From NCBI GenBank assembly GCA_965649765.1, contig OZ287759.1:30442001-30506000 (forward strand): a DNA stretch of 64,000 nucleotides. The letters run 5' to 3'. Position 1 is the first letter of the stretch. The number at the start of each line of letters is the position of its first letter. The notes beneath the pieces are model-generated. The model ran no database searches. It was not told the DNA's origin and saw nothing but the letters and a program-made list of their open reading frames with translations. Positions 53,646 to 62,716 of this stretch are shown here, one piece after another. This stretch comes from Bispira polyomma (Eukaryota). A program made the translations under genes and the position numbers.

Positions 53646-53990
53646 GTGGTCTCTGTGGCCTAGCGGTTATAGTGTTGCACTTTGTATATGAGAGAGATCT
53701 GGAGGGTCCAGATTCGATCCTCACTGCAGGCTTGGAGATTGTACCCTGGACAAGGTGCTTTACACAAATGTTTTCCCTCTCTACCCAGGTGTATAAATGG
53801 GTACCTGGCCGCTAATGGTTGTAAGGCTTTGTGCGCCGTATTTGGTAGCATGGCTAGTATGCTTCCTGAGGGAGCTGAGACTGAACAATTGGTTGACAAG
53901 TCATAAAACCCAGACTGGGGGTGTAAACTGTACAGCGCTTTGAAAGAAAGCGCAATATAATTGTTACATTTATTAATATATTATAATTAA
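53646..53990 (+). mobile_element. Full-length CORE-SINE (family B) with L2-like tail
   Basis: tRNA head (tggcctagcggtt; gattcgatcc), MIR-CORE-like ccctggacaaggtgctttacac...gtataaatgggtacc, and tail agcgctttgaaagaaagcgcaatataa. Confidence 0.85.
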
Positions 53991-55499: not shown

Positions 55500-55664
55500 A
55501 AAATAATTATAATAATTATTCGTTTGATATAGCGCATTATGAACATCACTGTTATTTAACGTGGTTTGACATTATTACCCCAGCCTGGGTTCTTCCACTT
55601 GTTCAGTCTCAGCTACCTCAGGAAGCATACCAGCTGTGCTGCCACATACAGCGCAAAAAGACTA
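55500..55664 (-). mobile_element. 3' half of a family B CORE-SINE split by the Ngaro insertion
   Basis: Reverse complement matches 53825-53960 (tatgcttcctgaggtagctgagactgaacaa). Confidence 0.85.
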
Positions 55665-55890
55665 TAACTAGTAGGACACTTTAGGGCACTAATGATTCAG
55701 TCCTCATAGCAAAGTTTACACCTCTACCTTAAATGTGTGAACTACACATAACTATGCTTAACAAATTTGTCTGTCTATCCACAAACTGACCAATCAGAAT
55801 AGGCGGCTTGTAGCTTAATTCCCGTGTTTTGAAGGGATTCCATATTAAAATTTGCTAATGACATGGAAGCAACAGAAAATATTTTAAGCA
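55665..55890 (+). repeat. Ngaro repeat A1
   Basis: 226 bp, one mismatch to A2 by eye. Contains a CCAAT motif (ccaatcaga). Confidence 0.95.
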
Positions 55891-57260: not shown

Positions 57261-60031
57261 GTAGTTTACCGACAACTAGGGACAGAGACAAAGCAATGTA
57301 AAATTGAGAGCAGTGATAGTATTTTAAATGTTAATGTACATAGTGTTGATAATGAGAGTATTATGAACAAAAATCATGATGATCTAAATGAGTACATAGT
57401 GGAAAATGTTAAAATTTGTGAAAATATTAAAAACAGCACAAATAATATGCCTTCTATTGTTATAGAATCAGAAATTTTAGGTGATGAAATGACCAATCCC
57501 AAAGGCTCATCTGGCTCCTCCTGGGTGAGAGATGAAGGGCAGGAACTTGCAGAGAGTGCACTTCACGAGCTCCAGCATAGCAAAATAATGGTAACAAAAA
57601 GCGCATACAATCCAGAAACTCATAGAGGGCATGTTGTTACAGGTAGCACTGACCAAGCAATGAATCAGGGCAAGGTTAGGAATTTAAAAGAAGTTGAAAT
57701 GGACAAAACTGTCACAATTTCTGAGACAAATTGGGCATATGTTGATTTTACAACTGGAAATAAGTGTCCTATTGTACACATAGCTGATCACAATGGTCTT
57801 AGTCAAGGTTTTTACTGTTTAGAAATAGATTTGGTCACTGCTGCCTCTCTGTTTTATAAAGTTGAATTTAAACCTAATGGTTTATTGCAAATAATTAACT
57901 CTTACCAAGTGTTGGGTAAAGACCTGAATGTAACAAGTAATTGTAACAGCAAAATTGAAATCAGATCTCAAAGAGAAATAAATCAGGCAGCAATGGTTGC
58001 TGACAATTATAAAGCAGATGTAAAAAGTTTACAACAACATGGTAAAAACCATACTGAAATGATGGAACAAGTAATTGACTCATTGATATATAACTGTGAG
58101 CATGCAATAGATATTAATAATATAAACAGTGAAGATGAGAAAAGTCTGAATCACCAGCACTGGGCAGGGGCAGAAGCCCATTTCAATGCAGGTAAAGTAA
58201 ATTGTGATAAAATACACACTCGCTGTCTGTCTTCTTCTAAAAGTTCAAAAAATTTTGTCATTGACGAGATCAGTGTAGCTGGCTCAATGAACTCAGACTT
58301 AAGGGACTTTAATGACAAAAATAAGGAAATAGGTTTATAGCTTTAGCTCCTATTAAGTACACTTTTTGTGGTCCTGACAGATGTGGGGAAAAAATTGACA
58401 CCATCCCAAAAATCTTAGAAATGGCTAAAATAATTAAAGACACAGGGGTACCCAATTATAAACAGGCTAGAATCCCTGTTAGTTCAGACTTGCACATTAA
58501 GGCATGGGAGGACATGCTAACGGAATATCCAGATGAACTCCTCATACAATACATAAAGTTTGGTTTCCCTCTGTGTCTGGAAGATCCAGACAGCGTCAGA
58601 AATAAAGACATAAAAAATCGCTTCTCAGCTCTTCAATTTCCCTATGAGGTTGGAGAATATCTAAGAAAAGAACAGCAATGGGGTGCCATGCTAGGTTCAA
58701 GTAAGGAAATTGACACAATTGACTACAACTGCTCTCCTCTGCTTACCAGGCCCAAAGATGGTAACAAGCGTCGTGTTATACTAAATTTGTCACACCCATA
58801 TGGGACGTCTCTCAATGACTACGTGAACAGGGACAAATTTGACAATGTAGCGTTCGCGTTAAAATTTCCCACCATTGATAACATCACAGATGCAATTCGC
58901 AAAACGGAAGACGTAATGTTATTTAAAATTGACGTGGCCCGGGCGTTCCGCAACTTGAGAGTTGACCCCGTAGACGCAGTCAAACTGGGCATATTTTGGA
59001 ACAATGAGTATTACATAGACCCGGCAATTGCATTCAGATGGGTACACGGCAGCGTGGCCTTTCAACACTGCACTGACGCAATTACGTCACACATGCGCAA
59101 ACAAGGATACAATGTATTTGGGTATATAGACGATTACATGGGCATAATTAGTAAAAAGGATGCAGAACAGGGTTTTGAGAGTTTACACTCACTACTCACA
59201 AAACTCGGTTTACCTATGAACGCAGACAAACTAACTGCCCCTTGTAGGAAGCTCACATGCTTAGGAATTGATTTTGACTTGGACAAAGGTACTATAAGTA
59301 TTCAGCCTGAAAAACTCAAAGAAGTGTATGACGCATGCGTGGACGCCATTGACAAGAAATACATAGGCAAAACAAAATTTCAATCACTTCTTGGAAAATT
59401 ACTCTATGTTCATAAATGTGTAATTCCGGCTCGTGCTTTTATCAATAGATTACTAGCAGCCTTTAGAAATAACCATGACAGAAAGCGATTTAAGGTTGCA
59501 CAAGATATGAGGAATGACTTACAATGGTTTATTTCGTTTATGAAGAAATTCAATGGAATTACTTTTATTAACCACAAAAATATTCCTTTTGCAAATGAAC
59601 TGCATCTGGACGCATGTCTTACAGGCTTCGGGGCAATCTATAACGACGAAGTATATGCCACCCCGTTTTATAACTTATTCGACCAAGATCTCACGATTGT
59701 ACATCTCGAAATGTTGAATATAATAGTAGCACTACGTGTATGGGCCAAAGTATGGGAACATCAAGCAATTTGTATCAATTGTGATAACATTCAGAAAACC
59801 AAAGACCCTTTCTTAGCTTCATGTGTAAGAAACATTTGGTTCATTACAGCCACATATGATATTAAGTTAGAAATTAAACATATACCAGGGAAGGTAAATG
59901 TAATTGCTGATCATTTATCAAGAATTTACTCTAGTAAGCCTCCTAATGAACTGGTAATGCAGTCATTACTGAGTAACTTCAGGTGGAAACATGTACCAAT
60001 TGACTATTTCAATTTAAGTTTATTCATATAA
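57261..60031 (+). pseudogene. Ngaro pol: long N-terminal extension, reverse transcriptase and RNase H
   Basis: The 325-aa ORF joins the 536-aa ORF if one T is restored at ~58336 (IG-FIALAPIKY...). RT motifs KIDVARAFR, YIDD and CLGI; RNase H motifs LDAC, HLEMLN, CDN and ADHLSR. There is a probable short in-frame deletion after CDN. Confidence 0.9.
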
Positions 60032-60063
60032 TTGTAGGCTCTACAGTAATCAGTCAAACACTG

Positions 60064-61014
60064 ATGTCTTCAGCTTGGTTAAGGATGAACTCATCACTCA
60101 GGCCTAAGACTACTACAGCATACAAAGGAAACTTCAGGACATTTCTCAGCTTTCTTCAAGTGGTGGGCATTCGACAGATTACTGTACATGCTGTCATTGC
60201 TTTTATTGAATATTTAATTCAGAACAACCTGTCTCCAGGGGCTATTAGTAATTACATGGCTGCAATCAAGTTCACAGCTAACAAATTTAACTGGGACATG
60301 ACACCCTTTACACATAATTCAGTAGCTCTGTTGTTAAGGAGCTTGACACATAACTCAGCATTTAAACACAAACCCAAAGGCATTTTTACAATAGAGGATC
60401 TAGTGGAAATCTCAAAAGCATGCAATATACTAGAGGACCCAATATTATTCAGGGCAGCATTCATGCTGGCGTTTTTTGCATTCTTGAGGGTCTCAAACAT
60501 TGCCCCTCACTCCAGAGCCACTTTTGACACAACTAGACATTTCTTAAGGCAAGACATTGTTTTCGGCGAGCCTGGTGCACATATCATATTAAAATGGGCA
60601 AAGAACTTACAGAACCGCACAGACACCCATATCATACAGATTCCAACTCTAAAAAATAAGCACATTTGCCCAGTCACAGCTTTGAAGGCACTGTTGCAAT
60701 CAAGACCACTCTCGCCAGTACATCCCTTGTTCGCAGCAAATGTTAGTCCTTTTCACACAATAGTAGATTCACACATCAGGGTAGCACTGCAAACAGTTCT
60801 AGAACATATAGGCATACAATATGCATCACATGGTTTTCATACATTTAGAAGGTCCGGGGCCACCTTCGCCTTCAATCACAATGTTTCATTACAAAACATC
60901 ATGGCCCATGGCCTATGGAGGTCCTCCTCAGTATGGACATACCTACAGAAAACTTGACAAGCTGCGTCTATAGTACCACTTACATTTGCTGCAGCTATCC
61001 CTTCCTCCATTTAG
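60064..61014 (+). CDS. Tyrosine recombinase (phage-integrase family) of the Ngaro element
   Basis: Catalytic R (FLRVSN), HxxR (HTFRR), HGLW and WTY. The TGA at 60955-57 lies after the catalytic Tyr and is probably premature, since the frame continues QAASIVPLTFAAAIPSSI*. Confidence 0.92.
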
Positions 61015-61022
61015 TTTGGCTT

Positions 61023-61482
61023 GGGGCTTAAAAATTTGTTAAAAATGTCAAAATTTTAAGCATTATATTTTAATATTTTATGTAACATTGTAAATATTAC
61101 TAACATGTACAAAAATAAAACCTCAAACCTAATCTTTTACTACCTGTCTTTCACCAAACATCACTCTTAATTTACCTAGGCTTTACCTTCTGCAGAAATA
61201 GCTTTAGAAAATCTGACCTTGCATTGTTTGACCTTACTTTTCAATCATGGGCACTGTAACTAGTAGGACACTTTAGGGCACTAATGATTCAGTCCTCATA
61301 GCAAAGTTTATACCTCTACCTTAAATGTGTGAACTACACATAACTATGCTTAACAAATTTGTCTGTCTATCCACAAACTGACCAATCAGAATAGGCGGCT
61401 TGTAGCTTAATTCCCGTGTTTTGAAGGGATTCCATATTAAAATTTGCTAATGACATGGAAGCAACAGAAAATATTTTAAGCA
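61023..61482 (+). repeat. Ngaro internal B1-A2 junction
   Basis: B1 (234 bp, contains AATAAA) directly abuts A2 at gggcactg|taactag. Confidence 0.95.
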
Positions 61483-62335
61483 TCCCACCACCTCCCCTTT
61501 ACCACAGCTAGGGATAAGGTTTTTCTATGGCACTAGATTAGAATGGACTTAAGTCACAAGGTTATAATCCCAGTTAGATCTGGGTAGGTCGAACCGTGGG
61601 CCGTGTGGGGGCGGGGTCCAGTCTGCTGTAATCCTCCCCCCTGAGCAAACCACTGGGGTGCCAGGGTAGAATAGGGGCTCTGAGAGGCTGGACCTACCCC
61701 TGCTAGGCGGGGTTGTCCAAGGCCCTCGGTTCCAACCTGAATAAGTACTGGTAAATAGGGAAATTTAAAAAAATCTATACAACTTCAACCCTGTGGTATT
61801 AGGTCTTAAAAATGTTTAAGGTACAAATGACACATTTGTAACTGGAATTGTTTTAGATTATACTCAGGAAAACGTATGCGAGGGGTAAACATTAACAAAT
61901 GACATTAGACTACATACGAGATTTGTGGTTTATGACAAAGTTAAGGTGTGGAAATACTTGGCAGGGAACGTTAAAAATGTAGATTTATGGGACGCTTATG
62001 GCGACCCTCATAAAGTGTAAAAGGTGGGTGAAGTACATCACTCACATCAGAAAACACTATCAAATGTAATGATTCATGGCAGACTAGAGCTGGTTAAAAG
62101 TTGAAACAAGCGTTAAATGCAAGCACAAGTGTGGTTCTTTTTAAACTTACAAGTTGTATAAATGATTTTATTGGTCAAAGTTGTTTTTAGTGTATGGGAT
62201 TTATATATCCATTGTGTTTAATGGTGTATCTGACTATTTATGTAATACAATCATTTATATTATTATTGTGAGGCTAGTCCTGTGTTATTGCTTATGGCTA
62301 GACCTATACTTGTATGATTTAGTACCCTTTAGTAG

Positions 62336-62569
62336 GGGGCTTAAAAATTTGTTAAAAATGTCAAAATTTTAAGCATTATATTTTAATATTTTATGTAATA
62401 TTGTAAATGTTACTAACATGTACAAAAATAAAACCTCAAACCTAATCTTTTACTACCTGTCTTTCACCAAACATCACTCTTAATTTACCTAGGCTTTACC
62501 TTCTGCAGAAATAGCTTTAGAAAATCTGACCTTGCATTGTTTGACCTTACTTTTCAATCATGGGGACTG
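62336..62569 (+). repeat. Ngaro repeat B2
   Basis: 234 bp, three mismatches to B1 by eye. Confidence 0.95.
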
Positions 62570-62716
62570 ACACCTGTAAGCAGCCAGGTACCCATTTAAA
62601 CACCCGGGTAAAGTAGGACAACTTTGTGTAAAGTACCTTGTCCAAGGGCAGAATTATCAGGCCAGCAGCCAGAATCTAACCAGGACCCTCAAACCACTTG
62701 GCAACAGAAACCACAC
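62570..62716 (-). mobile_element. 5' half of the CORE-SINE split by the Ngaro insertion
   Basis: Reverse complement tgtggtttctgttgccaagtgg...cccttggacaaggtactttacac...aaatgggtacctggc matches 53646-53820. Confidence 0.85.

Follow-up and report, generated by a model that had tools for sequence, protein, structure and literature searches.

What does the GC-rich island between the A2 and B2 repeats of an Ngaro retrotransposon do? The window analysed here is a stretch of 64,000 nucleotides from Bispira polyomma (contig OZ287759.1), in which a sequence-only reading had placed a multi-stem RNA structure at 61483-61745, within the A2-B2 spacer of an Ngaro element. That setting proved correct: the repeats could be located, and reading frames for a reverse transcriptase (RT) and a tyrosine recombinase were found. 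The element has the following parts.

55661-55890, + strand: A1 repeat, 5' end of the element, 99% identical to A2
58325-60031, + strand: RT/RNase H reading frame (RVT_1, E 2e-8; the RNase H part is assigned from its position, with no Pfam match)
60004-60957, + strand: tyrosine recombinase frame, with Phage_int_SAM and Phage_integrase matches
61023-61265, + strand: B1 repeat, with a conserved motif at its 5' boundary, the putative plus-strand start
61253-61482, + strand: A2 repeat, from comparison with A1
61484-61508, + strand: C-rich tract adjoining A2, the putative minus-strand start site
62336-62578, + strand: B2 repeat, 3' end of the element, with clean identity to B1 up to 62569

The split direct repeats follow the order A1-ORFs-B1-A2-B2, the RT precedes the tyrosine recombinase, and the methyltransferase domain, a PAT/DIRS1 trait, had no Pfam match in any of the five frames scanned. 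Judged by repeat layout and domains, the element is an ordinary Ngaro. It shares its layout, its enzymes and the occurrence of solo AB units with Ngaro elements (order DIRS) as outlined in earlier accounts, the available parts of which describe neither a long structured A2-B2 spacer nor a conserved tract at the A2 end, unlike the element here (PMC8547959, PMC9210276). Its A2-B2 spacer is 853 nt long, its recombinase frame measures 317 aa from stop to stop (332-333 in many relatives), and the gag/pol region upstream is broken in this copy. The element is inserted in a very high-copy short repeat, and because both flanks (55595-55663 and 62567-62647) match one uninterrupted copy on the opposite strand (53744-53892), its ends are fixed. 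The Ngaro family is very large in the Bispira polyomma genome: a first look at 1.04 Gb gave 11,777 recombinase candidates, of which 150 were scored.

Sequence comparison supports a selected, covarying three-way-junction fold at 61586-61738, predicted in plus-strand RNA. The predicted order is P1 (12 bp, irregular), RU, a long P2 arm, UA, P3 and NNA.

61569-61584, + strand: small hairpin, in near relatives only
61591-61602, + strand: P1 5' strand, outer extension 61586-61589; two-sided change in 8 of 12 pairs
61603-61604, + strand: junction J1/2 (RU); GU in 42, AU in 4 and UU in 1 of 47 representatives
61605-61624, + strand: P2 5' strand; base near-invariant, upper helix covarying
61625-61684, + strand: distal domain, lineage-specific; pseudoknot or paired hairpins
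61685-61703, + strand: P2 3' strand, covarying
61704-61720, + strand: J2/3 (UA), 4-bp P3 hairpin (61706-61717) and J3/1 (NNA); P3 99% paired
61721-61732, + strand: P1 3' strand, outer extension 61735-61738

About 14 near-invariant letters surround the three-way junction and are concentrated there, with the arms and the tip varying. The base of P2 is wobble-rich as well as near-invariant, and the P3 loop has 4-6 nt. These junction statistics derive from 47 representatives; 115 instances could be parsed, and among the 40 newest loci 9 could not. The invariance of the J2/3-P3-J3/1 letters partly reflects row selection because they served as the search anchor. The P2 tip ranges by lineage from absent to a possible pseudoknot, which would form by loop pairing of 5-8 bp in two lineage types; in the window's type a rival hairpin is equally good. 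Two loci show further variants. One spacer (L067) holds two divergent junctions, and another (L040), whose recombinase falls in the window's clade, has a short junction form seen elsewhere in lineages with about 35% recombinase identity, through either a swap or convergent shortening.

The helices were evaluated by covariation. A 27-row alignment made from sequence alone, and so not fitted to structure, had 87% of cells paired, against 35-55% for slid partners, and two-sided change in 21 of 32 pairs (0/500 shuffles); a model-fitted alignment of 63 distinct rows gave 24 of 32. On a 25-row tree, 26-31 compensatory double changes fell on single branches, compared with 2.6 +/- 1.9 expected from re-paired columns and a maximum of 12 among 3000 re-pairings. 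Covariation across Ngaro lineages, which the sequence-only reading had named as a check, is therefore present in this genome as an excess of compensatory changes. Moreover, in 28 representatives the arms pair better with their own partners than with swapped ones (P1 -17.6 versus -11.1, P2 -20.7 versus -12.2 kcal/mol), with the own arm ranked best in only 11 and 13 of the 28. P3 has no two-sided change at all, so that its support consists of one-sided changes. No single pair reached E <= 0.2 in an all-pairs G-test, which used a home-made tree-based null and 36 of 69 rows, partial and near-identical ones having been dropped; its distal columns are not homologous. The G-U pairs are conserved and the plus strand is the more stable in 25 of 28 representatives, an argument for strand that is weakened by the general tendency of G-rich strands to fold better.

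Folding energy is weak evidence and could not carry the structure claim by itself. A comparison with shuffles, also suggested at the outset, is passed by the core at 61585-61739 on the plus strand (z -2.35; 4 of 200 shuffles as good) but failed by the whole interval 61483-61745 (z -0.17; 80 of 200). The minus strand of the core gave z -2.94 (1 of 200). This core window was picked by hand after the fold was known, and no 120-nt sliding window across the core fell below z -2. The minimum free energy fold does pair both long stems as proposed, but the full interval is no more stable than its shuffles. The strands quoted for 61586-61602, 61721-61738 and 61569-61584 do read as given, and conservation and covariation confirm both long stems, outer and inner. 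Two smaller hairpins fared worse: ccctgc/gcgggg is incompatible with P3 and with the conserved base of P2, and does not form in other lineages, while cccag/ctggg (61569-61584) is limited to near relatives and unsupported as a conserved element. The junction and its 4-bp P3 hairpin (61704-61720), the portion of the structure that is kept best, had been overlooked.

A DNA search returned 46 matches, the distant ones covering only the core and the 28 bases that follow A2. To avoid bias, loci were also chosen by recombinase match and not by motif (70 loci: the 30 best and 40 spread down the list of 150). Among the 48 sampled loci that keep A2 and the C-rich tract, 33 have the full motif, one a degenerate form and 14 none. 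In six relatives of the same type, identity to the window is 0.73-0.87 in the core and 0.33-0.49 at fourfold sites; outside the core the spacer, measured in four of the six, has an identity of 0.48-0.62 (0.5 for shuffles). Synonymous sites and the remaining spacer are saturated while the core is kept. The motif still lies between A2 and B2 in full elements whose recombinase identity is down to 36% and 44%. Two exact junction patterns occur at 405 and 89 places (reversed controls, 0), copy counts that are lower bounds because they are exact matches. Summed depth from three runs, on contigs only, was highest at the core bin among interior bins, which has no bearing on expression. Pattern matches in viral and metagenome sequences (1 and 50) reached a best model score of 22 bits and included no convincing full fold, and no relative of the recombinase was found in viral contigs. 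The literature searched does not describe the fold; an earlier mention, for example in Repbase, is possible. A loose Rfam search of the element and 12 other loci gave nothing relevant to the fold, which is thus an RNA fold with no Rfam match in an otherwise known element type.

The structure had been proposed to be a cis-acting RNA for RT priming, template jumping or packaging. The part of this proposal that is supported is a selected plus-strand structure. An essential signal of any of these kinds is unsupported, given the motif's absence from 14/48 recombinase-ascertained elements that keep A2, its loss from an amplified subfamily, and its variable distance from A2 and the C-rich tract (168-486 nt). 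In that subfamily, nested among motif-bearing relatives in a quick tree, a 218-nt deletion takes out the whole motif; 15 deletion-spanning copies, 96-100% identical, lie on 8 contigs, some of them clustered and perhaps duplicated. The three copies examined all differ in their flanks, keep the frames for pol (947 aa) and recombinase (333 aa) open, and have B repeats that are 98.7-100% alike. On these sequence comparisons, one young subfamily spread after junction loss. L056 lost the motif through another deletion, independent of the first, and it is likewise missing from L086, L090 and L098; the number of motifs in an element is 0, 1 or 2. From the 14 of 48 and the amplified subfamily it follows that the junction is not strictly needed in cis. 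Other structures occur in these spacers: L047 and L064 contain different hairpin modules (one lineage has a 35-nt hairpin in tandem), and the spacers of junction-less L086, L090 and L098 carry unrelated folds.

The C-rich tract, which had been seen directly after A2, is a better candidate for a priming site than the junction. It abuts the end of A1/A2 homology in 20/20 elements, with identity ending at most one base from the tract in 16/16 elements with an A pair (21 examined) and in 4/4 distant ones (16 loci); it follows A2 only, not A1, and at 85-100% identity in 14/14 compared relatives it is better kept than the junction. B1/B2 identity begins at a motif that precedes B1 only (19/20, and 5/7 in the distant set). 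Because of this abutment, the tract is likely the start site of minus-strand synthesis. The minus strand would start there and copy A2, B1 and the ORFs, and the plus strand would start at the conserved motif before B1. B1-A2, lying between the two starts, would be copied like one LTR, which would explain why A1 and B2 have sharp ends exactly there. A tRNA primer binding site begins with TGG and is the fixed complement of a tRNA 3' end; the tract begins with CC and varies in distant lineages, and was rejected as such a site. A tRNA scan returned none, and a search for an internal primer strand within 21 elements gave no consistent partner for the tract. For tyrosine-recombinase retrotransposons in general the start of reverse transcription is described as unknown, as is the primer of DIRS-1, whose RT acts in trans (PMC7192593, in the part available).

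What, then, could the junction contribute? Our preferred reading, to which we give a probability of roughly 0.4, is that it is an accessory protein-binding site marking full-length RNA for RT/Gag. An RNA would contain the spacer only by reading through B1 or by starting at A2; since an mRNA ending in B1 would lack it, the fold would mark the sole transcript from which a complete element can be copied. The junction would make packaging or initiation more efficient but would not be indispensable. We chose an accessory RT/Gag landing site because invariant junction letters with free arms fit a protein site. Consistent with this are a core kept where fourfold sites and spacer have diverged, the covariation, the better pairing of own arms, and the motif's presence inside the A2-B2 spacer down to 36-44% recombinase identity. 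Against it count the loss in 14/48, the amplified deletion subfamily, the variable tract spacing, the G-test with no significant pair, and a C-rich tract with no conserved partner strand in the elements. Retroviral psi and hepadnaviral epsilon are essential, lie near the 5' end and occur only on RNA that is packaged and copied. The junction would likewise sit only on RNA to be packaged and copied, but its position is 3', its spacing varies and a young subfamily does without it. The locus offers two concrete cis features, a tract at the A1/A2 identity end and an Rfam-unmatched RNA fold, and its natural variants (long, short, doubled, deleted) are ready-made controls.

Less probably, the junction faces the host, and stabilises the RNA, exports it or favours read-through to full-length RNA. 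A 3' non-coding position and 0, 1 or 2 copies per element would suit something helpful yet dispensable. Exonuclease-resistant RNAs have a downstream partner that closes a ring; there is no such partner here, and the junction lies about 600 nt from B2. The closest precedent in role, with another fold, is the ENE of Evade/Copia93, a 3' structured RNA that would raise retrotransposon mobility and whose deletion lowers mobility, the available text not stating that it abolishes it (PMC12501189). The junction differs in being GC-rich and far from the poly(A) end, and it was rejected as an ENE since a U-rich internal loop between short helices was not found in the sequence.

It is rather unlikely that A2-spacer-B2 is a separate non-coding transcript, its junction working in trans either as a cofactor of the RT or as a decoy for silencing. 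Units of the form A-spacer-B often stand alone, and all six of the long loci L111-L116 are of this kind, with no ORFs of their own; the A repeat has a CCAAT-like box and the B repeat AATAAA. Supply in trans would also explain the spread of the deletion subfamily. In T. cruzi, SIRE is such a stand-alone unit, equal to the A2-B2 part of VIPER, although its inner part is about 30 bp as described, versus about 850 bp with a conserved fold here (PMC6681497). However, a pure public good would be expected to decay, whereas the fold tracks the recombinase tree in most lineages, and solo units are possibly recombination leftovers (PMC8547959, in outline). Ten further loci (L101-L110) have ORFs and B with no spacer unit (10/10; A was seen in nine), and the partial forms L101-L116 may stem from recombination or be by-products of reverse transcription. 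Permuted elements, with the spacer unit upstream of the ORFs, numbered 0 of 10 examined. In L209 (G000:C3:22724200-22734100) the tail is a tandem B-A-spacer-B-A-spacer-B, 99.8% alike.

We also consider it doubtful that the C-rich start tract and a CR4/5-shaped junction form a telomerase-like RT-cofactor RNA, with a tRNA-free start and A2-spacer-B2 supplied in trans, or else a primer-making catalytic RNA. If there were such a cofactor, its supply in trans would let junction-less subfamilies spread. The telomerase CR4/5 domain (P5-P6-P6.1), as outlined in PMC4993307, binds an RT, can act in trans, and has a three-way junction, a 4-bp hairpin and an invariant A between long arm and hairpin. Three helices, a 4-bp hairpin and a preceding invariant A are found here too, that A having belonged to the search anchor. 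The likeness is an analogy of shape and layout only: loops here have 4, 5 or 6 nt as opposed to a fixed 5, the junction lies in a retrotransposon with no telomerase Rfam match, and it would pair up with a DIRS-type RT, for which no TRBD is known. CR4/5 membership was rejected on the 5-nt loop and the telomerase-RNA context.

A new class of self-cleaving ribozyme, which would process the RNA or free a primer, seems improbable. Ribozymes occur in other retroelements, and about 14 near-invariant letters around a three-way junction could be a catalytic core. Yet a cut would separate B2 from the remaining template, the few partial copies seen break at differing places, and there is no Rfam ribozyme match (E <= 10 for the element, E <= 5 for the 12 other loci). 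The hammerhead core, reported absent at the outset, is indeed missing, by sequence and by lack of an Rfam match; HDV-like, twister, pistol, hatchet and twister-sister ribozymes were rejected with it, none matching by family model or catalytic core. Should the junction self-cleave, or bind RT, it would define a new RNA family.

Very improbable is a DNA-level element (GC boxes, or a fold of single-stranded DNA, the form of DIRS-1 cDNA according to PMC7192593 in part) or a neutral GC island: the window's copy has GC-box-like runs and the whole interval a z of -0.17, but there are compensatory changes, GC boxes do not persist across lineages, and on the minus strand an A-C mismatch would replace each conserved G-U pair. 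A bacterial promoter scan, a method ill-suited here, was at chance level.

Two smaller sequence features accompany the repeats. The B1/A2 joint (61247-61299) contains a short inverted repeat with GACTG-like and CAGTC arms, kept in many lineages and likely the recombinase site. The 9-nt motif GGCTAGTCC (window 62272-62304) is often doubled; of 41 A-spacer stretches, 15 have it 18-81 nt before B2 and 8 more have it farther upstream.
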